Positions 4,065 through 56,072 are shown, numbered from the stretch's first letter. The stretch is DNA of 64,000 nt from a virus (IMGVR_UViG_3300043444_000221:16321-80320), one strand, 5' to 3'. Made by a program: numbers and translations. The notes: generated by a model not told the origin, from the letters alone.

Positions 4065-4079
4065 AAATATATAAGACTA

Positions 4080-4106
4080 GCCCCTCTTCGGAGGGGTTTT
4101 TCTTTT
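4080..4106 (+). terminator. Rho-independent terminator
   Basis: GCCCCTC-TTCG-GAGGGGT followed by T-run. Confidence 0.85.
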
Positions 4107-4165
4107 AGTAAATTGGTGTATAATTATATTACCAAACTTCTAACCCCACAAAGGAGACCCCTACT

Positions 4166-6424: not shown

Positions 6425-6426
6425 GA

Positions 6427-6887: not shown

Positions 6888-6904
6888 TCATTTTTAAGGG
6901 GTCG

Positions 6905-6933
6905 TTGACAAAGTCCCCTAGCTGGTGTATACT
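6905..6933 (+). promoter_or_regulatory. SigA-type promoter
   Basis: TTGACA-N17-TATACT; similar at 8355-8383, 19139-19167, 32284-32311 and 40633-40661. Confidence 0.75.
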
Positions 6934-6966
6934 TATACGTAGGTATCTAAAGCTAGGGGATTTTCT

Positions 6967-7491
6967 ATGACCTGTATCGTTGCAGCAAGACAGAATGAAA
7001 AAATTTACATGGCAGGTGACCGTGGTGCATCTGAAAGCAACCTTATCATGTCATTAACCAGTCCAAAAGTTTGGAAGCACGGAGAATATATATTTGGTTA
7101 CTGTGGATCAATGGATGGCGATAGAATGAAGTATAACTTTAAGCCACCAGCACCAAAAGGTGAAGATCTAGATAAGTTTATGTATACAGATTTTTTAATT
7201 GCACTTCGTGTATTCTATGAAAATTGGTGGGTAGATGTTTCTAATGATTCTGACTTTGGTCTACTCATTGGTATTCGTGGAAAGATCTATGAACATAACG
7301 CAGTTGATATGTCACTAAATCAATACATGCATGACTATGTTGCAATGGGTTCAGGAGCAGAATATGCATACGGATCAATGTACTCTACTGAAAACTTAAA
7401 GGATACAAGAAAGCGTGTAATGAAAGCAGTCAGTGCTGCTATTAAATTTTCTACATCCTGCCAAGGTCCAGTTGACATTGTCAGTACGTAA
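6967..7491 (+). CDS. HslV/proteasome-beta-like Ntn threonine protease
   Basis: N-terminal MTCIVA (Thr nucleophile), AGD...S, K, AMGSGAEYA.G. Confidence 0.75.
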   Translation: MTCIVAARQNEKIYMAGDRGASESNLIMSLTSPKVWKHGEYIFGYCGSMDGDRMKYNFKPPAPKGEDLDKFMYTDFLIALRVFYENWWVDVSNDSDFGLLIGIRGKIYEHNAVDMSLNQYMHDYVAMGSGAEYAYGSMYSTENLKDTRKRVMKAVSAAIKFSTSCQGPVDIVST

Positions 7492-7500
7492 TGTTATAAT
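7472..7500 (+). promoter_or_regulatory. Consensus promoter with embedded TGTCAG element; leaderless start
   Basis: TTGACA-N17-TATAAT that also reads TGTCAG-N10-TATAAT; ATG 6 nt downstream. Confidence 0.8.
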
Positions 7501-7506
7501 TAACTT

Positions 7507-8358
7507 ATGTACAATACTAGAACTCCAATGTATGAGAATTCAAATTTTAGAACTAATCCTTTTAAGAAAAATCCAAATACTTCTCATACATATAAAACAA
7601 ACATTGTCTTTGGCTCAATGCCAATAGGCAATCCAATGGACATATCTGTGAATGCTCTAGAGCACATTATGGAAGCTGATATTCTATTGGTAGAGTCTCA
7701 CAGAGAGTTTAGCAGATACATCACAATGCTAAATAATCTTGAGGTTAGAACTCATATTGATCTGCAGCCTGGTGCAGTTATATACCAGTACCAGTTTGAA
7801 TCAGAGCCAGGGAAAAATGATGAAATAAATTCAATCCTTATTCACGAGGCAACTGTTAATAATAAAAAAGTATTTGTTGTTTCTGATGAAGGGCAGTCAG
7901 TATTCCTTGAACCAACCCAATCTCTTAAGTATAAGATGATTGAAAGCAATATTCCATATACAGTATTGCCAGGACCATTTTCTGGAATTCAGTCTGTAGT
8001 GTCATCAGACTTTTTTATAAGACAGTTTTTCTTTGGAGAAAGCTTGCCAAGCATAAGTCAGCAGGGCAGAGTTGATACATATAAAAGAATAATTGCTGCT
8101 GGAGTTCCAGCAATCTTTTTGCTTACTGCTGAAGATTCAAAGTGGTGCGTTGAAGAGCTAAAGCAGTTCTTCGGTGCTGACTGGACTGCAGACTTTCAGA
8201 TGAGTCTTACCATGGAAAATGAAACCCATGTGTATGGAACGTTAGATGAAATACTTAACTATATAGATAGTGTTGATTATCTTTTTAAGAATGAAAATCA
8301 GGAAAAGAAATTTGCTATTTTGCTATTTCCTAATAAAAATATTGAACACACATATTGA
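7507..8358 (+). CDS. RsmI-like tetrapyrrole-methylase family methyltransferase
   Basis: PIGNPMDIS..A...I..AD....E, VSDEG, LPGP, FFFG motifs. Confidence 0.7.
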   Translation: MYNTRTPMYENSNFRTNPFKKNPNTSHTYKTNIVFGSMPIGNPMDISVNALEHIMEADILLVESHREFSRYITMLNNLEVRTHIDLQPGAVIYQYQFESEPGKNDEINSILIHEATVNNKKVFVVSDEGQSVFLEPTQSLKYKMIESNIPYTVLPGPFSGIQSVVSSDFFIRQFFFGESLPSISQQGRVDTYKRIIAAGVPAIFLLTAEDSKWCVEELKQFFGADWTADFQMSLTMENETHVYGTLDEILNYIDSVDYLFKNENQEKKFAILLFPNKNIEHTY

Positions 8359-8389
8359 CAAAATCTCAGCTAGGTGGTATATTTAATAC

Positions 8390-8569
8390 ATGACAGATAA
8401 AAACTTTGATGAGCTATACGATTGGCTCCAGCACGGAATTGAAAAAGGTTGGGTAACAGAACCATTCTGCTACACACATGATGGTGATCCATACATGACA
8501 GAAGAAGAAGAGCAAGAGTGGGAAGATGGAGGAGACCCATGTTGTCCCGTAGTAAAACTTATTCAGTAG
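8390..8569 (+). CDS. Small Cys/His acidic protein (not in track)
   Basis: MTDKNFDELYDWLQHGIEKGWVTEPFCYTHDGDP...GGDPCCPVVKLIQ; leaderless after promoter 8355-8383. Confidence 0.7.
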   Translation: MTDKNFDELYDWLQHGIEKGWVTEPFCYTHDGDPYMTEEEEQEWEDGGDPCCPVVKLIQ

Positions 8570-9429
8570 GAATATCTTTATCAGTTGCTGCATCAATATT
8601 TGCTGCAAGTCCTGCACATGCAATCTATGAAGGCTATGATGCAAATGGAGACAAGCTTGTGTCAGCAACATACATGGGGAATGGTTGTTCAGTAGCACCA
8701 ATTGCTAAGCGACTATTGGTTATGGCTCAGCATTGCCCAGCTATCCCAAATCAAACCAAGTATGTATATCCTGGTGAACCTGCAAACTCTAATAATACAG
8801 TAACTGCACTAAAAACTTTTGTTCCACAGGGAGAGTTTAAGGGTGGCCGTGAATACGACATCATGATTGTTGTGGTTGATAAGGATCTTCCATTATCAGA
8901 CAATCTGCTGATTGCAACTGAGCAGGATGTGCAAAGATTTATTGCAAACAATAATGAGATAGTTACATATGGATTTGGTCTGACAGAGTCAAAGTCTTCA
9001 TCTACCACTGCAAAAAAGGCAGTCTTTAAAATGTTTGAGGGCATAGATGGGGCAGTTTCTAGTTCATATAAGTACTCACTCTCTCTGACTCCAGTTAATG
9101 GTAAGCAAGAAGTATGTAATGGAGACTCAGGTGGACCATCATATGTGTTTGACTCTGACAAGATCTACTACATTGGTGCAACTATTGCTTCAAATAAAAT
9201 GAATGGATGTGGATCAGATCAACATCTTGCACCAATTGCAAGAGTACAAACTCTATATCCATTTCTAGATATTTTTAAAAATGCTAGTGATTGGGTGTTG
9301 CAAACTCAGCCGAAATCTGATACAATAGTAGAACCAAAGCAGGAAACAATTACTGCGGTGGCAAAACCTGTAGTTAAAAAGAAGGTTGTAATTAAGAAAC
9401 CTGTCAAGAAAACTACAAAGAAAAAATAG
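8539..9429 (+). CDS. Secreted trypsin-like (S1) serine protease
   Basis: Signal peptide, AQHC, YDI, CNGDSGGP triad motifs; Lys-rich tail. Confidence 0.85.
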   Translation: MLSRSKTYSVGISLSVAASIFAASPAHAIYEGYDANGDKLVSATYMGNGCSVAPIAKRLLVMAQHCPAIPNQTKYVYPGEPANSNNTVTALKTFVPQGEFKGGREYDIMIVVVDKDLPLSDNLLIATEQDVQRFIANNNEIVTYGFGLTESKSSSTTAKKAVFKMFEGIDGAVSSSYKYSLSLTPVNGKQEVCNGDSGGPSYVFDSDKIYYIGATIASNKMNGCGSDQHLAPIARVQTLYPFLDIFKNASDWVLQTQPKSDTIVEPKQETITAVAKPVVKKKVVIKKPVKKTTKKK

Positions 9430-9435
9430 AATAAT

Positions 9436-9508
9436 TGCCCTATAGCTCAGCTGGCAGAGCGTCCGACTGTTAATCGGCAGGTCCCTGGTTCGATCCCAGG
9501 TGGGGCAG
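9436..9508 (+). tRNA. tRNA-Asn(GTT)
   Basis: Cloverleaf, anticodon loop CT-GTT-AA, TTCGATC T-loop. Confidence 0.95.
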
Positions 9509-9534
9509 CAAACACATTGACGACGGTTGATGTG

Positions 9535-9692
9535 GAGTATGACCGAATAATTCCCAAAGTCAAATGGGGGGAATAAGGTACTATCGGATCTTAGCGGATC
9601 GTCTTAGCGGACAAACGGTAGGTGTGCTCAAAAGCGGTACTTGATGAACCGTATTGACTAGGCACTGGTGGTAAAAGGCAATCCACCTACTC
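9535..9692 (+). ncRNA. Putative structured ncRNA in tRNA cluster
   Basis: Terminal GAGTA/TACTC pairing, twin hairpins with identical TTAGCG loops, GGTGG/CCACC hairpin. Confidence 0.45.
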
Positions 9693-9698
9693 ACTCTT

Positions 9699-9772
9699 GG
9701 TCCTGTAGCTCAGTTGGTTAGAGCACTACCCTGTCACGGTAGGGGTCGCCAGTTCAAGTCTGGTCAGGATCG
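9699..9772 (+). tRNA. tRNA-Asp(GTC)
   Basis: Cloverleaf, CT-GTC-AC loop. Confidence 0.95.
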
Positions 9773-9780
9773 CTCAGAAG

Positions 9781-9939
9781 CATAAGTCTGAACAACTTAT
9801 GTGGAGATTGTTATACTGAAATCTGCACCGTGGACGCATCATACGAAGGGGTTCAGCCCGATGGAGATTGCTCTGCTAATCCACTAGGTATAACAGCCAA
9901 TGGGAATAGTTCCTTAACCAAAAGGTGACCACGATTGGC
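9781..9939 (+). ncRNA. Putative structured ncRNA in tRNA cluster
   Basis: Nested pairings CATAAGT/ACTTATG, TGTTATAC/GTATAACA, GTGGA/TCCAC, CATC/GATG, GCCAAT/ATTGGC. Confidence 0.4.
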
Positions 9940-9943
9940 AAAT

Positions 9944-10018
9944 GCCTTCTTAGCTCAGTGGTAGAGCAACGCACTTGTAATGCGTAGGTCGTCAGTTCAA
10001 TCCTGACAGAAGGCTCCA
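9944..10018 (+). tRNA. tRNA-Thr(TGT)
   Basis: Cloverleaf with encoded CCA. Confidence 0.95.
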
Positions 10019-10019
10019 T

Positions 10020-10091
10020 GGCCCCATCGTCTATCGGTTAGGACTTCAGATTTTCAATCTGGCAAGACGGGTTCGATTCCCGTTGGGGCTG
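10020..10091 (+). tRNA. tRNA-Glu(TTC)
   Basis: Cloverleaf, TT-TTC-AA loop. Confidence 0.9.
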
Positions 10092-10112
10092 CTATAATAG
10101 TATTGGAAAGGT

Positions 10113-10805
10113 TTGGATATGGAAAAGCCTCCTATTATAACGCATGACATCAATAATTTTGAGATCTGGTATGAAACCAAAGATCCAAACTTTACTGAAC
10201 TATCAAGACGATCAAACATCCCAATGAATTGGATGTCATATCAAGTGGTCCTATCTGGAGATAACAAGGACTCAATCATTAAGCCTATAAATAGGTATGT
10301 TGAAAGACTAGTTCCGCCACCAAAGCTAATAAGTATTAAAGATAATATTGTTAGACTTCGTCAGGGCAACCACGCAGAAATGTTTTTGCTAGAAAAAGAA
10401 GACGGAGAGTTTTATAATGTTGATCGTCCGTGGCAAAGACAATACTATAATACTGCCCTAGACCTTGAAGCAGAAGACTGCTTTCCTGGAACTTTTAAAT
10501 TCTATGTCCCATGGTTTATTGACGAAAACATTCCAGTGTATTTTCATCCATCAGAAGAAGAAAGCCCATTCTACACGTTTCCAACAATGGCTCCATATCA
10601 CAAAGTACCGTCAGACGTAAGATTTGTTGAGCCACACTTTGTTCCATTTAGATTTAAGAGAGTTGGCTCTCATATGATCAACGATAAGTTTGGTAAAATA
10701 CCAAGACAGTCTGCAATGTATGACATGGTTTTCTATGCAGATGATATAATAATAGAAAGAGTAAAGGAATTCTATGACAAACATAATTCAGTTTTATCCG
10801 CTTAA
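10113..10805 (+). CDS. Hypothetical protein
   Basis: 230-aa ORF heading an operon. Confidence 0.7.
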   Translation: MDMEKPPIITHDINNFEIWYETKDPNFTELSRRSNIPMNWMSYQVVLSGDNKDSIIKPINRYVERLVPPPKLISIKDNIVRLRQGNHAEMFLLEKEDGEFYNVDRPWQRQYYNTALDLEAEDCFPGTFKFYVPWFIDENIPVYFHPSEEESPFYTFPTMAPYHKVPSDVRFVEPHFVPFRFKRVGSHMINDKFGKIPRQSAMYDMVFYADDIIIERVKEFYDKHNSVLSA

Positions 10806-11496
10806 TGAAGACGTGCCTGCATTTGTGCCAGAACCACAGCCTGCATCTAGAAATCTTCCACAGTGGTATAAGGATACACCAGGGTCAATTGACTCAGGAG
10901 AAATGATGGCTCAGATTGGCCAGCCTGCAAGCACGGTAAAGAAGTGTATGCCAATCTTTGATGCAATAACAGCAGGATATATTCTAAGACTACCAATGGA
11001 TGTCTTTGTAGATGCTACTGGAGAAAAGCTGACCTATCAGATTCCACTTGCTATGACAAAGTTCAAGGGTGACATGTTCGCTACACATGAGCGTAGACAG
11101 TATGAAAAGTATCCATATGGGGATAGATGGCACCAAGACCTTCTTCGCATTATGCCATTTTGGATTATCAAAACACCAAAGGGGTTTAGTACACTAATTA
11201 CACAGCCATTCCATGGAGACAACTCTCCGCTATACGCAGTAACTGGATTGGTTGATACAGATGGATTTGGAACTGATGGACACTTCTCATTTTGGGTTGA
11301 GAAGGGTTTCAAGGGTACAATTCCACAGGGCACTCCAATTGCACAACTAATTCCATTCAGACGTGAGGACTGGAAGATGGAGCTAGAAACATATGAAGAA
11401 ACTAAGAAAGATATTCTTCCACAACGCTTTAATCTTCGCAGCACATTCAGTAATGGATACAAGAATAAGTTTAGAAGCCGTAAAGAATATAAGTAA
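10774..11496 (+). CDS. Hypothetical protein, dUTPase-like beta-clip tail; paralog of next gene
   Basis: P.WY, K.CMP.FDAITAGY, TP.G.S.LIT.P, IP.GTPI.Q.IPF.R shared with 11496..12269. Confidence 0.7.
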   Translation: MTNIIQFYPLNEDVPAFVPEPQPASRNLPQWYKDTPGSIDSGEMMAQIGQPASTVKKCMPIFDAITAGYILRLPMDVFVDATGEKLTYQIPLAMTKFKGDMFATHERRQYEKYPYGDRWHQDLLRIMPFWIIKTPKGFSTLITQPFHGDNSPLYAVTGLVDTDGFGTDGHFSFWVEKGFKGTIPQGTPIAQLIPFRREDWKMELETYEETKKDILPQRFNLRSTFSNGYKNKFRSRKEYK

Positions 11497-23459: not shown

Positions 23460-23747
23460 ATGGCAAGAGCTAAAGACGAATGGATAGAAAAAGCTAGATG
23501 CAAAAACTTTGATACTAATCTATTTTTTGATACATATGAGGAAGACCTAGAGATCCGTGAGGATGTTGATACGCTTTGCTCAATGTGTCCAGTTGCACGT
23601 CATTGCTTTGCTGTTGGAGTATCGCAAAAAGGCTGGGGTGTCTGGGGAGGAATCTATCTGGAAGATGGAGAGATCTCTCGTGAGTTTAATAGACACAAGA
23701 ATAAGGCCAAGTGGGCTGCAACCTGGAAGTATTTGACGGTAGATTAA
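23460..23747 (+). CDS. whiB: WhiB-family transcription factor
   Basis: W...A.C, LFF, C..CPV...C, GVWGG. Confidence 0.9.
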   Translation: MARAKDEWIEKARCKNFDTNLFFDTYEEDLEIREDVDTLCSMCPVARHCFAVGVSQKGWGVWGGIYLEDGEISREFNRHKNKAKWAATWKYLTVD

Positions 23748-31209: not shown

Positions 31210-31954
31210 CATTCTTATCATTGGTAGGGGAAATGTGGGGCTAGCAACTGAGCGTAGCATGCCACTGTTAAATGCAGACTTTCATGATCCATACAAAGGT
31301 TTTATCGCAAACAATCCAAATACATATGAGTATGCAATAGTCTGCGTTGACACACTTCAGTCTGGACCAGATGATTACAAAGACTTAGACAGTGTGATTG
31401 AGTATCTAAACAATTACTCTGGCACTGTGGTAATTAGAAGCACAATATCTCCAGATAAAGCATTGGAAATTAACTCTAAGCTTTCTGGCCCTCTTGTTAT
31501 GTTTCCTGAATTTATGGACCATAAGGATTTTAAAAATGGTACTGACTCATCTTCCAGAATTGTGTTAGGTGGTAGTCACGATACAACAAAAGACTTCTTT
31601 AAAACAATATCTAATTATGGCTATGATACAAATAAAGAAAAATTCTTTGTATCTATTGAAGAGGCATGCATAATTAAACTTTCTTCTAATGCAGCACTTG
31701 CTACCAAAGTTATTTTGTTTAACTCTATATATAAAATTTGTCAGGGGTATGGGGTATCATATGATGAAGTCAGAAAAGCAATTGGCATAGATAGTAGAAT
31801 TGGTATTGGTCACACTCTTGCTCCAAGTCCAGATGATGGAATGCTTGGCTTTGGTGGTCATTGCTTACCCAAAGACATAAAAGCTATTGCAAAAATGGAC
31901 AAATTGGGACTTTTTGAACATATAGAAAAAATTAACCACGATCTTGGCAGGTAG
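31202..31954 (+). CDS. UDP-glucose/GDP-mannose dehydrogenase family
   Basis: G.G.VG, RST..P, PEF, K...N..LA.K, GFGGHCLPKD. Confidence 0.85.
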   Translation: MSNILIIGRGNVGLATERSMPLLNADFHDPYKGFIANNPNTYEYAIVCVDTLQSGPDDYKDLDSVIEYLNNYSGTVVIRSTISPDKALEINSKLSGPLVMFPEFMDHKDFKNGTDSSSRIVLGGSHDTTKDFFKTISNYGYDTNKEKFFVSIEEACIIKLSSNAALATKVILFNSIYKICQGYGVSYDEVRKAIGIDSRIGIGHTLAPSPDDGMLGFGGHCLPKDIKAIAKMDKLGLFEHIEKINHDLGR

Positions 31955-33848: not shown

Positions 33849-33925
33849 GGGGCAGTAGTTCAGAAGGTTAGAGCGTCACTCTTATAAGGTGAAAGTCGTG
33901 GGTTCAAGTCCCACCTGCCCTACCA
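33849..33925 (+). tRNA. tRNA-Ile(TAT)
   Basis: Cloverleaf, loop CT-TAT-AA, A discriminator, encoded CCA. Confidence 0.9.
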
Positions 33926-33926
33926 T

Positions 33927-34000
<74 letters not shown>

Positions 34001-34011
34001 CAAATGATATA

Positions 34012-42574: not shown

Positions 42575-42650
42575 TTGTTAGGTTTAGATACCCCATTTTG
42601 TTAGGTTTTATCTTGAGTTGTTAGGTTTGATATCTCAATTTGTTAAGTTT
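42575..42650 (+). repeat. Iteron-like direct repeats
   Basis: TTGTTAGGTTT at 42575, 42598, 42618 and TTGTTAAGTTT at 42640. Confidence 0.8.
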
Positions 42651-42724
42651 ATACACATAGTTATCCACAGAGTTATACACAATTTGATGTCTGATTTTGA
42701 TAGTTATCCACAGGTTTATCCACA
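42649..42724 (+). promoter_or_regulatory. Five co-oriented DnaA boxes
   Basis: TTAT(C/A)CACA at 42649, 42661, 42673, 42704, 42716. Confidence 0.85.
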
Positions 42725-43566: not shown

Positions 43567-46500
43567 TTATGCTCCTACCTTCCATTCCATAGTATCAAAT
43601 ATGGTATCCATTGTCAAGTGCAAATTGCAGTCACATTCTCCACCATTCATATTCTCCATGAATTCAAAATGAGATAAATTGTCTTCATATATCTTGGTTA
43701 CTAGTTCATCTACTGTATATGGTGTGCTCATGAATTTGCCATTACCCATTCTTCATCTACCTCGTCGTCATAGCAGCCACAGCATTCAACACAGATAATC
43801 TCATTATCCTTGCTGCAGTTTGGACACAGATATTGGTCCATTGTCATCTCAGGGTTTTCACAGAACTCACAGATGGTTGCTGCAAGTTGTTCAATAGTAT
43901 AATCTCTAATGTGGTCTGCCTTGAACATATGTTCCATACTCCTTGTCTGCCGTCCATTTTGCAATCTCTTCTGAATCCATATCAGCGATATCAATCATTA
44001 GATTATTAGTGAACATCCAGTCCCTTACCCATTCGTATAGGTGTTCAGTTCCATACTCTAGGGTAAAGGCAGGGGTATCAGTATTGAGAGCATCCCATAC
44101 GATATCCTGTGTACGAATATATAGTTCTTCATCTTGGTAGAACTGGTCAATGATGTCCCACACCCATAGCCACACAAGGCTAGGGAAATGGGTCTCATTT
44201 AGTTTAGTTAGTTTATCTAGAATCTCGTCTAGTTCTTGTCTTGGGGTTGTCATAGTATCCATTCTACTACTTGTCAAGGATTTCGTCAAGTGTTGTAAAG
44301 CCTGTGTCTTGTACCTCTACCCCAGCCAGCAGCAAATCAAATGTCTCATTGATGAATGCCTTTGCCTGGTCTGACTTAGCCTCCACTACCCCACTATCAA
44401 TTAGATAGGCAAGTGGTAGTCCAAGATCGTTATAGACAATAAAGTCTTCAAAGATCTCATCGTCACGATAGTTCAACCAAATGTCAGCAAGTATGCTGCA
44501 CTTATCTTGAAACTCTGTAGTTGATTGTGGTGAATCCATTGTTATCTCTTTCCTCTTGAGCAGACTCTGTCATTATCTCTAATCTGTGAAATGTGGTGCT
44601 AGGTCTCATTCGTGCTAGATAAATACCAACACGCTCAATGTCTAGTCTTAGGTCACAAATCATATTAGAAATCTTGACAGCGACTTTTTCTTCTTCTGTC
44701 ATTCCTCTATGTATCATTGTCACCTCACTCGTTCATTATAGCAAAAATATGGGGAGAGGGCAAGTAGTGAAAGTAGGAAATGTCTACTCACCCCCTCCCT
44801 GGTGGTACAGCCGTCAACCCCTTAACAGCTGTACTATCCTAGGAGCTAAGCTCAACTAGGAAGCTTTGTCATACCAGACCATGGGCTCTCCAGATGGATT
44901 AAGCTCACGTACATCTACAAGACTGTTTAGCCAATCAAGAATAGATTGTGGGCATGCCTTAGACTCTTCTAGGAATGCATCTACACCTGTCCAGAAATCA
45001 GTCCCATACTCATCTATAGGGAAGTCAGGAGCAATGGCCCTAGTCTCTGCTAGCGTAAGCTTTCTGATATCACCTTCATATGTACGTGAACCAAGATGGT
45101 CATTAATATAAAGATATACCTGCATGGTTAGTAGCTCGTCCCAAGTGGTACCCAGCTCTTCATCCCATTGCTCTGCATAGAAGATGTTAAGGTCATAGGC
45201 CTTGGTCTCTTCGTAGGTAAACTTACTTGACGATGTCTGCATTGTCTTCTCCATAAATCTGCTTGAGGTCTTCTACGGTATCGCAAGGAATGTCAATTGA
45301 ACCTTCTTCACACTCTTCGCAGTTAGGGTCATAGTCACCGTCTTCTGTGGTGTCATAGCAGTCACATTGGCGGTAGGTCCAAGTAGGAATCTCTGTCCAT
45401 TCGTCTTCCCATGGATTCTCAGTAATGTAGTAATGAATGCGATTTACAAAATGCCAACCTGCCACAATGTAAGTGCCCTCGTCACCATCTACTTCAGTCC
45501 AGATGTGCTTAGGGTCTTGAGCCTTGACAAAATCTACCTCTTCACCATAAGTTTCAAAATGAATAAGGCTCTCGTCAGGATACTTACTAATAGTATTTTT
45601 GATTGGCTTGAATGTTTCTTCCCACCCACCATAGGTATAAAACTTAGACATCTAGGGTTACCTTCTTTCCATACTCTCTGATTACGTCTTCGAACTTATC
45701 TCCCTCAAGTTCTCCAACTTCTTCCATAATAGCATCAAACTCACCCTGTGTCAAGTTCTTGGTATCTAATACATATAGGGGAAAGTTGCTCTGGTGCTCC
45801 CACCAGTCTCCATTAACATTAGCAATATAAACAGTCATTAGCAGTCTCCGTTACTAGGAATCTTGTCTTCTGGTACACCCATCATAGATAGGATAGCTTG
45901 GCTTCTTCCAATGATGCCCTCAAGGAAATCACCATATGGGTCATTGATATCCAAAGCCTCTCGTTCTGGAATCAGTTCAGTGATATCAGCAATAAGATAA
46001 TCAATAATCTCCTGATTACTCGCCATCTTCATCCTCCTCATCAGACTCAAACTCTGCTACCTCAATGCTGTGGACAATGCCTGTGTGCGACCAGTCCTCA
46101 TACTCCCAGCCTTGCTTTTCTGCTTCCTCAACGCTATCAGCTTCAACCTCATAGCAATACTCAACAGTTACAGTTACTTCATAAGAACCCATTTATTTAT
46201 CCTAACTTTCTCTTAGAAATGGAAGTCTACAGGAACAAGATACCACTTTTTGGAACCCTTGTCAAGTTCTTCCAGCATATATTTCGGGGTAGTGGTGTAG
46301 TTATCCAAATCATAGAAATATGAATCTTGATTCCAATAACCATTTAGCATAGAGGCAGCAGACCTAACATAGTATGCTGTCATATCAAATCTATCCTCAT
46401 CTGATAGATTGCCATTGTTTTCAATAAAGGTATCAACAAGACTACTAAACTTATCTAGTTCTAGTCTTTCTCTGATACGCCCCATTTCTTCGCTACGAGC

Positions 46501-46749
46501 AGATAGAGAGCCTTGAAGAGTTTCCATAAACTTATCAGGATTATCAGCAAGTGAAACCACATCGTTGTGATTATCTTGGTATTGATTATTAGGATTACTA
46601 TTCCAACGCCCACCACCAACGACATACCAATCAGACCAGCCACCTAGTCCCTCACTTTCGGAATACATAGATTCAAACTTGTCTTTTACTTTATTGAAAG
46701 CCTCTTCTGCAGAATCAGCCTTTATTGCTATTTGTTGTAATACGTGCAT
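43567..46749 (-). CDS. Operon of small acidic hypothetical proteins (43567, 43728, 43906, 44267, 44502, 44856, 45223, 45644, 45838, 46016..46192, 46213..46749)
   Basis: Overlapping start/stop ORFs behind the promoter at 46780-46808. Confidence 0.7.
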
Positions 46750-46985
46750 TTGGGGTTGCCTTTCTACTTTGATACCTCAATTTTACACGCTGCCACTGAC
46801 ATTGTCAAATTGGGAAAAGAATCAGCGTGTCGTAATTACTTTTATATAGTTATTTATATAAGCTCAGATCCAGAATTTGGGAAATTTGTTACACAAACGT
46901 AATACAAAATACTTGACTAATAGTATAAAGTGTGGTCGACCACATTGCGATCAGTTTGTCAAGCTCAACACGATCCCTGGAGGGA

Positions 46986-47013
46986 GGGCAGTTTTACGTG
47001 TTGCCCAGCACGT
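46986..47013 (-). ncRNA. Post-stop pseudoknot, copy 2
   Basis: ACGTG-CTGGGCAA-CACGT-AAAAC-TGCCC. Confidence 0.65.
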
Positions 47014-47017
47014 TTTA

Positions 47018-48031
47018 TTATGCGTTAGCCATTACGCCTTGCACAACTTTTAGCAGGCGATTCTTCTCTGCATTTATCATTGGGTCAAACCCACTTGCAC
47101 TTGCAAGAATTGATTCGTTAGAACCGCCACGAGCAGAACGATACCAATCCAAACGCTCAGTAAGTGCATTGAACGCACCCCAAGCAGTGCCAGCAATCAT
47201 GCCATTGTAAGTGCCAGTGTAAATGTCATTGATAACATCTACCTTGTTTTCCCACTTCTTGACAGCACCCTTAGTGTCCTTGTCAGGCTTAGGGTATGCA
47301 GACAGAATGATGTCATTGAACTGTTGTGCAGTTACTTCTTGCTGAATCATGGCGTGTGCCATCTTGTCGAATTCGTCCATGTATTTGTTAGCAAGACCAA
47401 GAGTCTCACGAGCAACCGCAATCTTACCCTCTGCAGTCTGAGTGTGACGAATCTTGAAACTTTGCTTAGGGCCTTTGCCACGAGAACCTAGAGCAAGGTT
47501 TAGAGTGTTAGCACATACAACACGAACAGGTGTGATAGACGCTTGAATAGCAATCGAACCGTCGTGTGATGTATTGATAAGAAGATAAGTCTTTACCTTA
47601 TCTGAAACGCCGTTAGGGTCAAGAACGGTTTCACGCTCAAGAGCAAGAGAACCGAAGACAACACGTCCGCCCTTGATAGAGCCAGCAGTCTCCCAACGTC
47701 CGCCACCGTCCAAGATGTTGTCACCGAATGAGAACAAATCTTCATTCTGCAAAACCTTGTAACGCTCACCAACAACGCCAAGAACGTCATTCTGTGAATT
47801 GTCAAATGGGTTAGTGCGAGTAACGAAGAAATAGTTCTTGTCACTTGCGAATGTGTCAGGAATCGAAACGTCCTCAAGACGAACATTCCAGTTGTCAAGG
47901 TGTGCCTTCTGCAACATTTCTGCAGTGGTTACTTCTTCAGTGAAGACCTCACCAAGACCATGCCAAGCAGGCTCACGAAGAGAAGCAAAAGCAGTCTCGC
48001 CGTTTGCACCTTGTTCTAGTAGATGTGCCAT
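47018..48031 (-). CDS. DUF932 family phage/plasmid-like protein
   Basis: AWHGLG, VG.RY...QN, ETAGS..GG, YLL...SHDGS, TPVRVVCANTL, GTAWG..NA..E..D. Confidence 0.85.
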   Translation of the reverse strand: MAHLLEQGANGETAFASLREPAWHGLGEVFTEEVTTAEMLQKAHLDNWNVRLEDVSIPDTFASDKNYFFVTRTNPFDNSQNDVLGVVGERYKVLQNEDLFSFGDNILDGGGRWETAGSIKGGRVVFGSLALERETVLDPNGVSDKVKTYLLINTSHDGSIAIQASITPVRVVCANTLNLALGSRGKGPKQSFKIRHTQTAEGKIAVARETLGLANKYMDEFDKMAHAMIQQEVTAQQFNDIILSAYPKPDKDTKGAVKKWENKVDVINDIYTGTYNGMIAGTAWGAFNALTERLDWYRSARGGSNESILASASGFDPMINAEKNRLLKVVQGVMANA

Positions 48032-48210
48032 GTGTGTATCCTTTCGTAGGGGTTTTTCTGATAAGACTATTATGGCAGATACCTCTGACAATGTCAAGTT
48101 ATATTGGGGAAAATGTTTGGGCGTGTCGTAACGTTTTCGTAACAAAGTTATCCACAAAGTTATCCACAGGGGGTCGACACATTTTCGATCAGATGTCAAA
48201 TATGGGGAAT

Positions 48211-48239
48211 GAGCAGTTTACATGGACGTGCTCAGGTCC
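48211..48239 (-). ncRNA. Post-stop pseudoknot, copy 3
   Basis: GGAC-CTGAGCAC-GTCC-ATGTAAAC-TGCTC. Confidence 0.65.
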
Positions 48240-48284
48240 CTTAGCATGCAGGCAGAAAGAAAGGATAAAAGCCTGCAGTACCTC

Positions 48285-49191
48285 TTACTCTACGTTAACC
48301 CATTTCATTGCGGTACGTAGAAGATTGTCATAGTCCCCAGACATAGACTCATTCATATACTGTTCGACCTCGTCAGCTGAGGCTCCAGCTTTTCGAAGGG
48401 CCTTAGATACAGCTCCCATGATAGCGAATGCATTACCGTCAGTGCCAGTAAGTTTTACAGTTACAGTCTCATATTTACTCATTAGATTATCTCCGTTAGG
48501 GTTTCGTTGTATTCTACATCATCAGGGTTAGAGAAGTCAAATCCCGAATCCTTATAGTCTTCCTCATCCTCGTATCCTTGAAGGACAAAGAACTTAGCCA
48601 TTGCTTCATCTTCACTAGTGGCCATAACGCTGTATGATTCACCTGTTAGGATTGTGTATTCCTGCTTTTCCATTACGCCATTACCTCTTCCTTTGAGAAC
48701 TCATTCAAGTATAGTTCAGGGGTAGGGAGTTTGTCAAGCGAGAACACAACCTTTTTACCACCATACTGTGAGATAAATAGTCTAGTTTGAAAATCAATTG
48801 TATAGACACCCTCGCACATCAAATCATCTTCAATAAAGTCAATCTGATTAGATAGGGGCACACGACCAGTTGAATAGGTTACCACCTTAAGAATGTCTGA
48901 ACCTGTATTTCTAGTTAGACTAGGATACATTACAGCAAACTTATCGCTGTTATCCATTGTCATCATTCCGTCAGGGGTAACGAATGGCTTGTACATCTCT
49001 TCCAACTCTGATTCAGTAGCGAAGTAGCATTTGAATAGTGCCTTCTCCAACTGTTCTACAACATTGTAGCCAGATAGGAATGATAGAATGTTTAGGCCCT
49101 GACCATCTGGATAGTGGTCCCATTGTCCATACTGTGCAACAACAGTCTGGCCGTTTGAATCAATTACCTGTGTAATACCTCTTGTACCCAT
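48285..49191 (-). CDS. Three small hypothetical genes (48285..48482, 48482..48673, 48673..49191)
   Basis: G.DGNAF.IMG...SGDYD.LL; MGTR...QY..WD.YP.GQG; AAGGA RBS. Confidence 0.75.
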
Positions 49192-49384
49192 TTCTTTCCT
49201 TCTTTCTCTTGATACCTACAATTATAGTATGAGGGTCTGACATTTGTCAAGTTATTCCTGGCGTGTCGTAAGCTTTTTCTTAAATGTTATCAATTTGTTA
49301 CATTTGGTCGACCCCATTTTTCACCAGATGTCAAGCTTGGTTCTGATCTTTTCCGAAGATCATTTTGACATTGGTGAAAGTGGT

Positions 49385-49412
49385 GAGCAGTTTCAACACT
49401 TGCTCAGGTGTT
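49385..49412 (-). ncRNA. Post-stop pseudoknot, copy 4
   Basis: AACAC-CTGAGCAA-GTGTT-GAAAC-TGCTC. Confidence 0.65.
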
Positions 49413-49417
49413 TCCCG

Positions 49418-49597
49418 TTACTTCCCAACAAGGAAGAAACTTGATGCTGACTTTCGCTTCTGCTTTACGGGAATGTTCTTGGTCTGATTGGTAGCACCAA
49501 TAAACTTTCCATCTGCCGTGCGAACAACAGCCTTGTAGATTTCACCAGACTTGGTGTTCCACTTCTCAGTTGCGATTACAATCTTCTTTCGTGCCAT
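49418..49597 (-). CDS. Small basic protein (not in track)
   Basis: MARKKIVIATEKWNTKSGEIYKAVVRTADGKFIGATNQT...; AAAGGA RBS. Confidence 0.7.
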   Translation of the reverse strand: MARKKIVIATEKWNTKSGEIYKAVVRTADGKFIGATNQTKNIPVKQKRKSASSFFLVGK

Positions 49598-49632
49598 TTC
49601 TTTTTCCTTTTCGTTGTTGGGTTTATTAGGGT

Positions 49633-49666
49633 GAGCAGTTTAGCCTTGACTTACTCAGGTCAGGGT
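49633..49666 (-). ncRNA. Post-stop pseudoknot, copy 5
   Basis: CCTGAC-CTGAGTAA-GTCAAGG-CTAAAC-TGCTC. Confidence 0.6.
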
Positions 49667-49671
49667 TCTCG

Positions 49672-50118
49672 TTAGAGAAGTTCCATTACGGAGTTGTAAG
49701 TGGAAGCATTTACTTCCTCTTGCTGTGTCATCTTTAGAACCTTTAGGTTCTTCTTGAGCAAGTCCAACTTGGTGGTGTAGTCCCTACCAAAGTAAGTCTT
49801 CTCATTTGGTCGCTGTGGTTCTTCAGGTCGCTTAGGGAAACCAAGTGCCTCAGTATCAAACTCAACAGACACGCCATTGTAGCGGTAGTTGCCTGTTACA
49901 CGAACAAGTGAGCCGTTCTCAGTTCCAATGTTGCTTGGGTCAGATAGTGCCTTGATAGCGTGAGCAATAACATCTTTCTCATACTGCTTTACATCAAGTT
50001 CATACTGCTTGCGAAGTCCAGAGTAGTTCTCAATGTCCTGCTCTACCTTTGCGATTTGTGCCTCAACCTCTGCGATTAGTGAAGCGGTTGGGATTTTGAC
50101 GGATAGCGATTTTGCCAT
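49672..50118 (-). CDS. Hypothetical protein
   Basis: Own promoter and RBS. Confidence 0.75.
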   Translation of the reverse strand: MAKSLSVKIPTASLIAEVEAQIAKVEQDIENYSGLRKQYELDVKQYEKDVIAHAIKALSDPSNIGTENGSLVRVTGNYRYNGVSVEFDTEALGFPKRPEEPQRPNEKTYFGRDYTTKLDLLKKNLKVLKMTQQEEVNASTYNSVMELL

Positions 50119-50189
50119 TTTTTCTTCCTTCTTTCTTTTGGGTTGTATCTATTATGCCATTGGGGTCTGACATTTTACACCTTGCGGTG

Positions 50190-50215
50190 GGGTAGTTTAG
50201 AGTGATACCCAGCAC
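50190..50215 (-). ncRNA. Post-stop pseudoknot, copy 6
   Basis: GTG-CTGGGTAT-CAC-TCTAAAC-TACCC. Confidence 0.55.
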
Positions 50216-50222
50216 ATTGTCA

Positions 50223-50375
50223 TTACGCCTTGTAAGTAGTCCAGCGAGGCTGTCCATTTACATTGAGGCGAACACGCACCGAGCCAGATGCGTTAGGCAC
50301 GATTTCCTCAATCACGCCTGTAACCTTGCTCTTGAGAGTAGTGAAAGTGTCACCAATCTTGTAAGTTGCGGTCAT
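50223..50375 (-). CDS. Small beta-barrel-type protein
   Basis: MTATYKIGDTFTT.KSKVTGVI.EI; GGAAG RBS. Confidence 0.65.
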   Translation of the reverse strand: MTATYKIGDTFTTLKSKVTGVIEEIVPNASGSVRVRLNVNGQPRWTTYKA

Positions 50376-50676
50376 TTTGCTTCCTTTCCATTTTGTCTTC
50401 ATACCAACTTTTGTTGATAATACTATTGTAGTGGATACCTCTGACATTTGTCAAGTCTATTTGATAACATTTCGGTAACAACTATTTACTTTTTGTCTGC
50501 TGATTTCCAACTGATACTATTATGGCATAGCCTACTGACAAAAGCAAATCCGACACGCCGTAAAATCTGGGAAATTTATAACGAAATCATAACGACACGC
50601 CGTAATTTGACAAATCACAAAAAATGTGTCGACCACAGATCGTGCCAGTTGTCAAGCTGACACGCCGTGGTTTTAT

Positions 50677-51393
50677 TTATTTCTTAGTTGCACTGAACAG
50701 AATGTCATTGCGATTAAATACACATTGCGAACAGGCAACACATGCACTACCCTTTTCACTAATTAGTTTAATCTTCTTAGCATTTTCGGGGCATGGAATT
50801 GCAGCCTTCTCTTGAATGTTTGCAAAGTCTAACTTACCTTCTGCAAAAGTCTTAGCAAGGTATGCAAGTTTTACATCATGCTTCTTCTTGAGTTGAATAC
50901 CTAGTGAGCGGTTTGCACTATCAGTACTAAAATAAAGTGATAGGTTAGTAATTCCCATTAGTGGTTCAACAGCGAATTCTGAACGGGTATAAGCCCAGAA
51001 TTGAGTATCTGCATGATTAAGAATTACATCCTTCCATGCCAATACATAAGTCTCATTAAAGAAATCACCATCCCAGTGGATACGGAATAGTTTTTCTGCA
51101 TTACGCTTTTCACAGTCCTTCTTGAATGAAACGATCATCTCATCCAATAGGTTATACATTGTTAGATAATCAGCGTCTTTGAGTTGTTCCCAATTGGATA
51201 GCAATACATTCTTTACGCCTTTATAGACTTTTTCGAGTTTTCCTGCATAACAGACGCTCTCACATACAGTGGTCGCACCAGGGCACGAGTAAGCCTTTCC
51301 ACTAGGTAATCCAAAAGTGTTTGCGATTGTTGGGGTTTTTCCATTTGGGGAGACTGCATTAGTGACTTTCCTATCTTTGCTACGGGTTAGCAT
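50677..51393 (-). CDS. Gp88-like Cys-cluster phage protein
   Basis: CPGAT..C...CYA, RIHWDGDF, W.YTR, CPE...C..C..C. Confidence 0.7.
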   Translation of the reverse strand: MLTRSKDRKVTNAVSPNGKTPTIANTFGLPSGKAYSCPGATTVCESVCYAGKLEKVYKGVKNVLLSNWEQLKDADYLTMYNLLDEMIVSFKKDCEKRNAEKLFRIHWDGDFFNETYVLAWKDVILNHADTQFWAYTRSEFAVEPLMGITNLSLYFSTDSANRSLGIQLKKKHDVKLAYLAKTFAEGKLDFANIQEKAAIPCPENAKKIKLISEKGSACVACSQCVFNRNDILFSATKK

Positions 51394-51423
51394 AGTTGTC
51401 CTTTCTTTCTTTAAACTATTTTA

Positions 51424-54400
51424 TCAGTAATCTTCATCTATGTCAAGCCATGCGTCAAGGTGGTGAGCCTCAATAATTGCATAGGCAGGTGCCTCAAGGC
51501 TGCCACGCCATGATACGCCTTCGGGCAGGGGAATCATACGGGAGCCTTCATCTTCATTGTAAGCGTTAATAGCTTCAATACATACAGGTACCATAGATAG
51601 CGGTACAGGTGGATAGTGGTTGCCTCTAAGGTGCATACCAATTGCATCTTCTAGTGTTAGATTAGGGAATAGGTCTGAATCAGCCAATTCCATTGCCATG
51701 TTGCTTCCCATTAGTTTCCTTCTTTCATTTGTTCAATAATAGCATGGTGGATAGCACTTTGTCTAGTCCTTTGACGGCGTGTCCTTTTATCAAGGTGAGT
51801 GCCACTAGCATTAGACTTTCTAATCTCTCGCATACCCTCAGCATAGGCAGGGTTAGCGGTTGGCTTATACTTATTAGTCCTATCTTTCTTCATACCCTAA
51901 TGCTAGCACAATTTGGGGGAAGTGTCAAGCCCATCTTAATTAAGATACGTAAATGTTACCAAAATGTTACATTTGTCGGCACCTGTGGATAACTCTGTGG
52001 ATAAGTACAGAGCATCCCAGGCGATCCGCTTACAGTTTGTTTTTTAGTTTGTTTATTTCGTTAGCTTGCATCACGTTAAGAGTTACAGACATTGCAAACA
52101 GTACAGAAAGAGTTAGCATCATTTATTTTCCTCCACTCTTTCCGTCACGAGAGAACCATCTAGTGTGCATCTTTCCACTTGGCTCCATTAGATTATAAGT
52201 TGCGAACTCTTTCGCATCTCCAACATCAACACACTTCTGAAAAGTCTCTACTGCAGAGAGTGCATCTGAAAAATTATGTGATGACATTAGTTTTCCGTCA
52301 TATGAAATAGTTAGTTGGTACATTACTCTTCACCTCCGATTTCTGCGAATACTGCGTCAATAAACTTCTGGTAGTTGAAATTAGGATTGTCTGCCTCAAA
52401 CATTTCAGCAAACTCATCAGCAATTTCTGACAAGACAAGAAAGTCAATTTCATCTACATAGTTGTTTAGGATTTGTGCGGTTGCTACATAGTCTTTACGG
52501 GTCATCATTTTATTTTCTATCCTTTTCGTTTGTTTGTATTATTAGTTTAGTGTATTGGTCTGACATTTACAAGCATTGACTATCAGCGTGTCGCCAAGCT
52601 TCTCAACACTTGCGAGGGTATTGCATGAATCACAGATAAAAATTTCCATGTTAGTTAGTCCTAACTGCGATAGTGCGATACTTGTAACCAATTCCATAGT
52701 TTGGACGGATAGTTACAAGATACGCCTCTGCGTCTGAGTAGAAAACATCATCACGCTTTTCTGCGTATTCAATAGTGCCCTCAAGAGTGCGAGAGCGGTA
52801 GTAGGTTCCCTTTAGGGCTTCTTCGATTGTATAGACATTTGCTGACATTAGTTGTCACCTTTCTTTAGTAGTTTAATTATACAACAGGGGTCTGACATTT
52901 ACATCATTGAGTAAGTGTCTTGGTGAGCAACACACTCACCAATTTCACCATTTAGGTGATAGTGGGTATCTAAGCCCATTTCAATTTCTTTTCCGTTATC
53001 AAAAGTGATACGGACAGCGTGGGCATTGTGCCCGTGAATCTTAGTTACAACACCACTAGCAATTGGCTTAGTGTAGAACATCTTACGGGCTAGAAAAGAA
53101 CCATTAGGCTTTTCTGAACCTTCAATTTTCTTGCTACCTGCACGATTGTAGATAGCGATTGTTGAACCTAGTTCAATAGTGCGAAACTTTTTCATTTTTA
53201 GTTCTCCTTTCAAGAGACTTTCTTTAACTTTCTAGGATAAATCCTAGCATAGGGGTCTGACATTTTGCAACTCACAAAACGGACATTTGCCACATTTGTG
53301 ATTGTGATTTAGGTCTCATTTATTCGCTAGGCTCACCCGTTTTTCGGTTTATTTGCTAGGCTCATTTTGACCTAAATCTCTCTATTTATTTATAGGATAA
53401 GACTAGCAGACATATCTCAAAAAGTCAAGGCGACACGCCGTGTTTCTTATAACATTCTTATAACGACACGCCCGACTGCGTCGACCAGATCCAGGAGCTT
53501 TTGTCAAGTCCTGTTCTGGCGTGTCTTAGAATGGAGGCTTGTTGTCCTCTTCGCCTTGGCGGTATCCAACAGACTTACCAATTCGGTAAGCAACATAGAC
53601 GAACACAATGTCAAGCAATAGGTTGAAGCCGTTATAGAAAATCATTTGTTATCCTTTCTTTGTTATTAGTATAGACTAGACTAGGTATTCTGTCAAGTCT
53701 TCACCTAGATACTCTTCAGCGTCTAGGATAGGCATTAGCCCGTCATACTCGTGACAAGCAGGGCATACATAAGCGTAGGTTACGCCGTAGCAGTATACAC
53801 AGATTCTAAGGTCTGAATCAATCTTTCTAGTTTCGTTCATTTTGAACTTCCTTTCTTTTACTAAGATAAACCTATCACAGGGGTACGACATTGTCAAGCT
53901 TTTTTATGGCGTGTCGTAGTTTTAATTATAACAATTTGATAACGGGTCGACAGATTTTGATCACTTTGTCAAGCTTTCAAATCTGCGTGTTGCGTTTAGA
54001 TTTTGGCTTTACCAACCAAAGTACCTGAAATAGAAAGTGCGTCACACGCAACTTTTACTGCAATACCAGCAGGGAGTTTTGCAGGGTACTCATTTAAGAA
54101 TTGAGCAACTGCACCCTTGCTAGGGAGAGAGATTACAGAGACATTACCATTGAAGGTTTCTAGTTTTACTTTATACATTAGTTTTCCTTTCATTAGCCGA
54201 AATAAACGGCACCTTTTACATTCTGATGATTAACACATACATTACCACGAGGGATAGGTGTATGACACTTGAAGCATAGCATTTGCATTGGAGCATTTGT
54301 TACTATTGCTAATTCTAAATCTAGTTTTTCTGAGGTAGTAGCCTCATCAAGGGATACCCAACCAGCACCCTGTTCATTCATTCTAAAAATTTCTAGTGAC

Positions 54401-55117
54401 ATTTTTATGTCCTTTCTTTAACTTCTAATAAGACTATCCTATCAGAGGGGTCTGACAAATAAGGGCTTTATTTGCTTAGGCTCACTGTGATACTAGTCAC
54501 ATTTATTTGCTAAGGCTCATTTCCTTATTTATCCTTATTTAATTTTGATACGAGTATCCTAACATAGAAAAGCCAAAAAGTCAAGGGACAAAACGGACAT
54601 TCTTATGTGTTTTAGGTCACATTTTGGTCGACACGGATCGCAGCTTTTGTCAACTGCGACACGCCCTTTTTTTACATTTTTCTTAGCATCTCATTGAAGT
54701 CATCTAGTGCTTGCTTGTATAGTTCGGGGTACTGTTCAGCAATACCCTTTAGACGCTCATCACTAGCCTTCATTTCAGCATAGGTACCACCCCAATGCTC
54801 AGAGTGATTAGCACTAATTTCTTTTAGCATTTCATCATAGGTCATTATTATTCACCTACCTTTGGGCAGTAGGTTACATTTCTGCTACTGTGGAATGTTG
54901 CTCCACCTTCTAGCACTTTGTGTTCAAGAACAATCTCGTGTTCCCAACCCCTACCTGCTATGGCAGAGTTAGTTACACGCTCTCCACATTCGGAGCAAGT
55001 TCCAAACCATAGGCGGTTATCCTTGCGGTAACCATCTTCTGGGTTGATTACCTTGAAATTGAAACCAATTCCGTTCTCACGGATTTCTTTGAAGTTTTCT
55101 TTAGTGATTACTAGCAT
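51424..55117 (-). CDS. Series of short, separately promoted hypothetical genes (51424, 51711, 52123, 52323, 52651, 52899, 53676, 53996, 54193, 54848 and others)
   Basis: Each ORF or pair has an AAAGGA-type RBS and an upstream promoter. Confidence 0.7.
54486..54501. promoter_or_regulatory. CRP/GlxR-type box
   Basis: Perfect TGTGA-TACTAG-TCACA; 1-mismatch copies at 53303, 54606, 55203. Confidence 0.65.
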
Positions 55118-55365
55118 TTCTAGTTATCCTTTCTTTTTATTACTATCTTTTCTTTATGTATTAAGATTAGCAGACAGGTCTGACAAAGTCAAGTCTATTT
55201 GGTGTGATTTATGTAACAATTTGATAACGGGGTAGGGGTGCATCCACACTATATTTTGTTACCTATTTGTTATAAAACATGTATCGTACACTTATTAAAA
55301 ATATTCAGATTTTCTCCAAATCCAAAATTTAAAATTTTTCAGATTTTGCCAGGTATAATAAACAT

Positions 55366-55494
55366 ATGGAAATTAAACGTGATGGAGACACTCCAGTTAA
55401 TGATAGCTGGACTATGAAAATTTTTTCAGATTCTTGCTGCAACGGATGTTCTTGCAAGTCGTCTGATGATCATAAAAAAGAAGACCAAGCCTAA
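55366..55494 (+). CDS. Small Cys-rich peptide (not in track)
   Basis: ...SCCNGCSCKS...; leaderless after TATAAT. Confidence 0.5.
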   Translation: MEIKRDGDTPVNDSWTMKIFSDSCCNGCSCKSSDDHKKEDQA

Positions 55495-55524
55495 ATAGCC
55501 TGGTCTCTTTATTTGAGCGGTATA

Positions 55525-55731
55525 TTAACGATTAGTATTAATATAACCATGCTCTACAAGCAAATCAAATAGCATGCCATTAACATACAGTAGTTGAGGT
55601 CTTTGCTGAGAAAGAGCCTGTTCAACTTGATCGCTTGGAGCATTTTGCTGAATAGCCATTTGACGATTCATATTGTCAATAGCATCTGTCATGAGCTGTA
55701 CAACTTCATCACGTAGCATATCTGTCTCCAT
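55525..55731 (-). CDS. Hypothetical protein
   Basis: 68-aa ORF. Confidence 0.6.
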   Translation of the reverse strand: METDMLRDEVVQLMTDAIDNMNRQMAIQQNAPSDQVEQALSQQRPQLLYVNGMLFDLLVEHGYINTNR

Positions 55732-55823
55732 TTCTACTAGTAGTTTATAAATGATATCACAATTTGGAAGTTAGTGCAATTTGGGACGGTACATAATCAG
55801 CGTAGCTGATCTCAAAATAAGAC

Positions 55824-56033
55824 TTACCAATTACCTACAGGACATTTCGCTTGAAGTAACGTAGTCTTTAAATGCATAAAGCATCCACACTTAGCACATC
55901 TAGCTGACTTAGGTCGAAAGAACTCACATGTCTTGCATATGTCCAAACGTTTCTCTATAAGGTCTTTATCTGAGCGTGGTTTATTAGGGTCAAATAGATC
56001 AGTAAATTTGACATCCCCTGGATTTTCTGCCAT
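55824..56033 (-). CDS. Small Cys-rich protein
   Basis: R..IC..C, C.KCGCFM..K..L..A.CP.G.W. Confidence 0.7.
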   Translation of the reverse strand: MAENPGDVKFTDLFDPNKPRSDKDLIEKRLDICKTCEFFRPKSARCAKCGCFMHLKTTLLQAKCPVGNW

Positions 56034-56072
56034 AATGGTCTATTTTATCATAAAACATGCTATAATTTCAGT

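Follow-up and report, generated by a model that had tools for sequence, protein, structure and literature searches.

A clustered array of candidate PafBC-type promoters in a low-GC phage family from freshwater

The middle promoters of phage T4 combine a MotA box at -30 with AsiA, and these phage-encoded proteins remodel sigma, a strategy known as sigma appropriation. LexA is a repressor that is removed by RecA, and its SOS boxes are used mostly by temperate phages for induction. Promoters of the actinobacterial PafBC type are, to our knowledge, known only from bacterial DNA-damage genes. Their in vivo consensus is tGTCgg(N10)tA(N3)T, with the upstream part at -23 to -28 and without a -35 element (PMC8635444). 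The GTC triplet, which is contacted by residues R46 and R50 of PafB, is almost absolutely conserved across actinobacteria; PafBC is placed between the DNA and region 4 of sigma-A, an arrangement called sigma adaptation, and further sigma-adaptation factors may exist in actinobacteria (PMC8635444). PafBC enters the polymerase-promoter complex only when holding single-stranded DNA (PMC11804915). Here we present an analysis of a 64-kb stretch of viral DNA (the window), which represents bases 16321-80320 of the 80.3-kb IMG/VR virus record IMGVR_UViG_3300043444_000221 and contains a block of small genes with an array of promoters in which the hexamer TGTCAG (the box) stands exactly 10 nucleotides (nt) before the -10 hexamer, together with a comparison of these promoters with those of related phages and with the PafBC promoters of actinobacterial recA genes.

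The pattern TGTCAG-N10-TAnnnT has 11 exact matches in the window, compared with a mean of 1.18 and a largest value of 6 in 100 dinucleotide-preserving shuffles of the same DNA; relaxing the box to TGTCRG gave no extra matches. Nine of the 11 are on the minus strand (46780-55185). Reading all TGTC sites added one minus-strand copy with TGTCGT (53869-53890) and three with CATAAT as the -10 hexamer (48069-48090, 50151-50172 and 50519-50540), for a minus-strand total of 13, from which the match at 52826-52847, overlapping the ATG of an open reading frame (ORF), was discarded as probably due to chance. The plus-strand match at 31739-31760, inside an ORF, is probably a chance match as well. There are thus 12 credible box promoters on the minus strand (46.8-55.2 kb) and one plus-strand copy at 7479, which is the tally given in a preliminary description of this DNA; the single TGTCGT copy and the four example promoters quoted there are also present as written. 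The box promoters are the following (aa, amino acids; TGn, extended -10).

55164..55185, minus strand: box promoter, TGTCAG-N10-TAATCT, TGn present, TTGACT 1 nt ahead of the box; upstream of an 89-aa ORF (54848-55117)
54436..54457, minus strand: box promoter, TGTCAGACCCC...TGA-TAGGAT, without -35; upstream of a 69-aa ORF (54193-54402)
53869..53890, minus strand: box promoter variant, TGTCGT-N10-TAGGTT, TGn present, TTGACA 1 nt ahead of the box; followed by a small ORF that ends at 53676
53241..53262, minus strand: box promoter, TGTCAGACCCC...TGC-TAGGAT, weak -35 TTGCAA; upstream of an ORF ending at 52899
52876..52897, minus strand: box promoter, TGTCAGACCCC-N-TATAAT, without a good -35; upstream of a 65-aa ORF (52651-52848)
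52544..52565, minus strand: box promoter, TGTCAG-N10-TAAACT, weak -35 TTGTAA; upstream of a 61-aa ORF (52323-52508)
50519..50540, minus strand: box promoter variant, TGTCAG-N10-CATAAT, TGn present; forms a tandem with the box promoter at 50425..50446, 94 nt further downstream
50425..50446, minus strand: box promoter, TGTCAG-N10-TACAAT, TTGACA 2 nt ahead of the box; followed by a small ORF (frame 50223-50447)
50151..50172, minus strand: box promoter variant, TGTCAGACCCC-N-CATAAT, without a good -35; upstream of a 148-aa ORF (49672-50118)
49221..49242, minus strand: box promoter, TTGACA, 2 nt, TGTCAG-N10-TATAAT; upstream of a 172-aa ORF (48673-49191)
48069..48090, minus strand: box promoter variant, TGTCAG-N10-CATAAT, TGn present, TTGACA 1 nt ahead of the box; precedes the DUF932 gene
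46780..46801, minus strand: box promoter, TGTCAGTGG-N-TAAAAT, TTGACA 1 nt ahead of the box; upstream of a 178-aa ORF (46213-46749)
7479..7500, plus strand: lone box promoter, TTGACA, 1 nt, TGTCAG-N10-TATAAT; a 283-aa ORF (7507-8358) lies downstream

Nearly every box is on the gene strand and precedes a ribosome-binding site and an ORF at a distance suited to a promoter. Seven of the 13 promoters have TTGACA or TTGACT 1-2 nt away from the box, and the remaining ones have a weak -35 element (TTGCAA, TTGTAA, ATGTAA, GTGTAA) or none, which agrees with the earlier statement that about half carry TTGACA just upstream and the rest lack a good -35. Repeats within the block are 20-40 nt long and 62-88% alike; being so short, they are promoter-sized motifs and not duplicated cassettes, and a recent duplication of long cassettes was therefore rejected. 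At the plus-strand promoter, the ATG of the 283-aa ORF (7507) is 7 nt past the TATAAT, and so short a gap points to a possibly leaderless transcript, a form that is common in actinobacteria.

The box was followed into 80 related viral contigs (1.3 Mb, 34-42% GC content) gathered with the DUF932 protein, a 393-aa product of the promoter block whose best database relatives are from Streptomyces, Mycobacterium, Microbacterium and Arthrobacter phages. In these contigs TGTCRG-N10-TAnnnT occurs 358 times on the gene strand versus 40 times on the opposite strand, and other spacings (7-9 and 11-13 nt) yielded only 4-25 sites. The five complete relatives have 3-15 boxes on one strand, clustered within about 3-9 kb, and in four of the five the cluster lies at most about 20 kb from the contig end. 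A sequence logo of 297 unique family sites is informative at the box, at two to four preceding A/T positions, at the W-S-S triplet that follows (W, A or T; S, G or C), at TGn and at the -10 hexamer, whereas the rest of the spacer and the outer flanks have near-zero information. The extended -10 is frequent in the family, 69% of the sites having T at -15 and 73% having G at -14. The association was also recovered from a start that was blind to the box: among 1020 unique TGnTAnnAT sites, TGTCAG was found 95 times at the N10 offset, where it is by far the commonest hexamer, and 0-1 times at any other offset. Of 37 variants with one mismatch in the box, 25 alter position 5 (to G or T) and five touch GTC. 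At the DUF932 promoter the box is kept in 56 of 77 relatives while the spacer, the -10 hexamer and the upstream flank drift, and the DUF932 proteins of the box-keeping relatives are 68-80% identical. Some relatives carry TGTCGGTGG, the classical host form, in DNA of 36% GC.

Host promoters for comparison were obtained by scanning metagenome contigs for a PafBC box located 71-131 nt before the RecA motif GKGS(I/V)M(R/K)LG. The scan returned at least 120 loci, all but a few of them of 50-74% GC, with very similar promoter layouts; the pattern had no match in viral contigs. The lowest-GC match (L159), on a Bacteroidota contig (SusD), was dropped as due to chance. In 99 unique actinobacterial recA promoters, the base at +6, downstream of the box, is W in 89%, compared with 35% after other TGTCRG sequences of the same contigs; the two bases that follow are G or C (top triplets TGG, 22, and ACC, 16), and positions -3 and -2 ahead of the box are rich in A/T against a background of 68% GC. 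The phage boxes show W-S-S at +6 to +8 in 63% of cases versus 10% after other TGTCRG sequences (odds ratio 15, p = 5e-54), their top downstream triplets, ACC (79) and TGG (71), are the same two as in the recA promoters, and A/T precedes the box in 93-94%. Neither search pattern included these flanks, and their agreement thus argues independently for a single kind of protein as the reader of both sets of sites.

A low-GC actinobacterial example among these recA promoters is found on contig Ga0194118_10001503 (L206, 44% GC), which carries a methylthiotransferase-type gene (UPF0004/Radical_SAM/TRAM), pgsA, cinA, recA and recX. Its RecA is 81-86% identical to those of the high-GC actinobacterial contigs and 68% identical to that of the Bacteroidota contig. 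Upstream of recA stands TCGAACACTTGTTCGA, the actinobacterial LexA (SOS) box, followed about 50 nt downstream by TGTCAG-N10-TATCTT. Low-GC actinobacteria accordingly have the two-promoter recA arrangement of mycobacteria, with the A form of the box.

The virus record is estimated to be 73% complete and has a GC content of 40%. Near-identical DNA was seen in freshwater and aquatic metagenomes of several studies, and a near-identity DNA search with 10 kb of the phage DNA gave no match to known phages. Regarding its affiliation, the window encodes a WhiB-like protein.

23460..23747, plus strand: WhiB-like gene, 95 aa; actinophage marker

WhiB is considered to be confined to Actinobacteriota and the phages that infect them (PMC10202952) and is regarded as an actinophage marker (PMC10914622). 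On the strength of this gene, the phage is assigned to the actinophages in spite of its 40% GC, and its host is very probably a low-GC actinobacterium, as judged from WhiB together with the actinophage relatives of the DUF932 protein. Genes for a tyrosine or serine integrase, a sigma-70 region 2 or a WYL domain were not found in the virus record or in the four to five complete relatives (111-120 kb); the phage therefore looks lytic and reliant on the host polymerase. A phage-encoded WYL protein, for which the preliminary description had recommended a check, was accordingly not found in the genomes searched. None of the contigs that carry the best 120 homologues of the WhiB protein exceeds 113 kb; these homologues appear to be phage copies and therefore offered no route to host genomes. 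A metagenome-assembled genome (MAG) labelled 'uncultured Methylococcus sp.' was considered as the host and dropped on the following grounds. This 3.6-Mb MAG has five WhiB-bearing contigs, all low in GC (36-46%); the ORFs of two of them were read, and these two look like phage DNA, since WhiB is accompanied by an exonuclease and a lysin-like peptidase. The only contig with a true recA has 58% GC, and the MAG has no WYL domain. The MAG appears to be contaminated with actinophage contigs. The window also contains six tRNA genes (Asn, Asp, Thr, Glu, Ile-TAT and Arg-TCT) in two clusters (9436-10092 and 33849-34001).

Compared with the described PafBC promoters, the phage promoters are alike in that TGTCRG occupies -28 to -23 and stands exactly 10 nt ahead of TAnnnT, in a near-invariant GTC with a variable fifth base, and in W-S-S downstream and A/T upstream of the box. 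Most family members lack a good -35, yet seven of the 13 window promoters have a TTGACA-like hexamer ahead of the box. They differ from the described promoters in being carried by an apparently lytic phage, where they drive ORFans and are clustered in up to 15 copies within 10 kb, in a strong preference for A at position 5, and in that most copies add TGn and some a perfect -35, whereas the host recA promoters have no extended -10. The match to the PafBC promoter proposed in the preliminary description thus holds for position, spacing, GTC, fifth base and the recA-like flanks; many copies also have an extended -10 and some a perfect -35, both of which host PafBC promoters lack.

With modest confidence we favor the reading that host PafBC recognizes the phage boxes by sigma adaptation, which would make the promoters respond to single-stranded DNA on top of a probable basal activity; the latter is expected because many copies have an extended -10 and some a -35. 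Host RNA polymerase with sigma-A would start the one-strand block of small phage genes at about 12 promoters. PafBC loaded with single-stranded DNA would dock the helix-turn-helix of PafB on TGTCAG, PafC would bridge to region 4 of sigma-A, and initiation at the phage promoters would rise, with PafBC acting as a booster or as a second mode. The single-stranded DNA might arise after damage, from the processing of phage DNA ends or at the start of replication. PafBC binding and activation, the early timing and the source of the single-stranded DNA are what we infer here; early expression, and entering phage DNA as the signal, are suggested by the size of the genes, their layout and the known ligand.

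The block in which the array is embedded also contains promoters of a second class and several repeated motifs.

43906..56033, minus strand: block of about 30 mostly small ORFs, served by box promoters and interleaved box-less promoters
54556, 53668, 51900, 51418, 48708, 46237, 44735 and 43589 (-10 ends), minus strand: examples of box-less promoters, cTTGACA-17-TGnTAnnnT

Pfam matches among the 30 ORFs of the block are limited to DUF932, GP88, DUF6171 and a sub-threshold DUF7129, none of which is DNA-binding. The box-less class cTTGACA-17-TGnTAnnnT is interleaved with the box promoters at 43589-54584 on the minus strand and is present at 56008-56036 on the plus strand. The motif GGCGTGTCG has 14 copies at no more than one mismatch (1.8 expected), all inside the block (46824-54665), and three of these repeats are found in the stretch around the box promoter at 50519..50540. 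Many copies, read on the opposite strand, precede the -35 position of a box promoter by 9-22 nt and are followed by GTTAY or GTAAC repeats with an 11-nt period (e.g., at 48120, 49260 and 53908); the motif looks like the site of another regulator, possibly of the response-regulator type. Consensus DnaA boxes (TTATCCACA) with a 12-nt period occur five in a row at 42649-42724 and as pairs inside the promoter block at 48148-48168 and 51984-52004. A 31-nt repeat, GTCGACC-N17-TTGTCAAGCT, has five copies (46935-46965, 49307-49337, 50628-50658, 53480-53510 and 53945-53975); on the minus strand it reads as a TTGACA hexamer with GGTCGAC about 17 nt further on.

Several observations weigh against a role of PafBC. 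The TTGACA-like -35 of seven of the 13 window promoters and the extended -10 of many are unlike host PafBC promoters; such promoters could be strong without an activator, and a protein bound at -26 on them could equally well be a repressor. Among the family box promoters, 22% have a -35 matching at least five of the six bases of TTGACA and 78% lack one; for the remaining candidate promoters the figures are 30% and 70%. The difference between box and box-less promoters is thus weak (p = 0.04, and p = 0.2 by a rank test). The genes served by the box promoters are small ORFans of the phage and have no known part in repair. Since the block also has box-less promoters scattered among the others, the box is not simply a signature of early promoters. 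Finally, related phages of the Streptomyces BE cluster have similar promoter arrays without a conserved box.

A rival explanation is that the box is the site of another protein, either a small phage DNA-binding protein that switches the promoter class off or on, or a host factor docking at -26. Many copies would need no activator, given the extended -10 and the -35, spacer sites are often used by shut-off repressors, any of the roughly 30 block ORFans without a recognizable family could bind DNA, and further sigma-adaptation factors have been suggested in actinobacteria (PMC8635444). However, the core, the spacing, the variable position and both flanks match the PafBC boxes of host recA genes, which would otherwise be a coincidence; an asymmetric site locked to the -10 within 0 nt suits an element of the polymerase complex better than a free operator; and domain searches detected no Pfam DNA-binding domain (helix-turn-helix included), WYL domain or sigma-70 region 2 in the phage, the complete relatives or the 30 block ORFs. 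We regard this explanation as rather unlikely. A dyad operator, TGACA-NN-TGTCA, which the preliminary description had named as an alternative, was rejected: the C of the upstream half is found in only 12% of the 297 family sites, and in the window the TGACA half-site stands at a gap of 1 or 2 nt from the box and is absent in about half of the copies, so that neither its conservation in the relatives nor its distance to the box is constant.

It has also to be considered that PafBC is bound mainly for titration, away from host genes for repair or defence, with transcription of the small genes being secondary. The 5-15 boxes per complete genome, clustered as they are within about 10 kb, and the other sites resembling those of host regulators (DnaA boxes and GGCGTGTCG repeats) in the same block could be read in this way, as could the link of pafBC to mycobacteriophage resistance (Rafique et al. 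2025, cited in PMC12848934). A pure decoy, however, would need neither a working distance upstream of genes nor the strand bias of 358 versus 40, and PafBC binding requires both single-stranded DNA and a polymerase engaged with a promoter (PMC11804915), so that binding implies transcription; titration as the main function is thus improbable in our view. Still lower is the probability that no protein reads the box at all and that the spacer is kept by common descent or by a DNA-shape effect that aids the sigma-A polymerase. Spacer sequence can affect promoter strength, and several window spacers share ACCCCT or AGGTATC, which hints at the copying of promoter modules. Conservation is nevertheless limited to the hexamer and three to four flanking bases, with near-zero information in the rest of the spacer; the box persists where DUF932 proteins are only 68-80% identical; its base pattern mirrors the PafB contacts; and the repeats are only promoter-sized.

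Recognition by PafBC would give the phage promoters a place among the other systems known. Like the T4 middle promoters, they would have an upstream element that replaces the -35 in front of a normal -10, with a reader between the DNA and sigma region 4; unlike in T4, no phage activator was found in the searches described above, and the presumed host reader leaves sigma region 4 folded. With SOS (LexA) boxes in phage and prophage promoters they would share a link of phage genes to the DNA-damage signal of the host, the differences being the presumed activator and that no integrase was found in the phage. The Streptomyces BE-cluster phages (e.g., Jay2Jay, Stanwilliamsviridae) resemble the phage of the window in their one-strand small genes near the genome end with sigma-A-type promoters of their own, and further in a common DUF932 gene, glycosyltransferases and a ribonucleotide reductase. 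The Jay2Jay promoters differ in having the form TTGnnn...TG-TAGACT without a conserved hexamer at -26, and TGTC is found at the box position in only about four of 22 TAGA[C/G]T sites, which makes the box characteristic of the low-GC family and not of all related phages. In Jay2Jay 1-11000, about 20 early promoters with TTGnnn...cTG-TAGACT carry upstream words such as ACACTTTC or GGACAT and form a dense array in the terminal region of this cultured phage.

Full-text literature searches found no paper on PafBC-type promoters on a phage. What would be new is the setting of an already known promoter class, which is here carried by a phage, densely arrayed and combined with an extended -10. A wider and distinctly tentative proposal, which we consider possible but doubtful, is that a widespread lake phage family takes PafBC as the start signal for the gene block: PafBC would be loaded by single-stranded DNA from the phage genome as it enters or replicates and would then activate the phage promoters, and the boxes would also divert PafBC and polymerase from host repair and defence genes. 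If true, the phages would be taking over the cell by sigma adaptation through a protein borrowed from the host, in parallel to the sigma appropriation that T4 achieves with proteins of its own. Recognition of the boxes by PafBC is directly testable with the published in vitro transcription system of M. smegmatis, and the family, with its hundreds of diverged boxes, is a natural test set for what PafBC reads. If the reading is true, this apparently lytic phage family shows that phages can plug into the single-stranded-DNA alarm of their hosts, which may have a bearing on how pafBC reportedly affects resistance to mycobacteriophages and suggests how phages of the very abundant freshwater actinobacteria time their genes.

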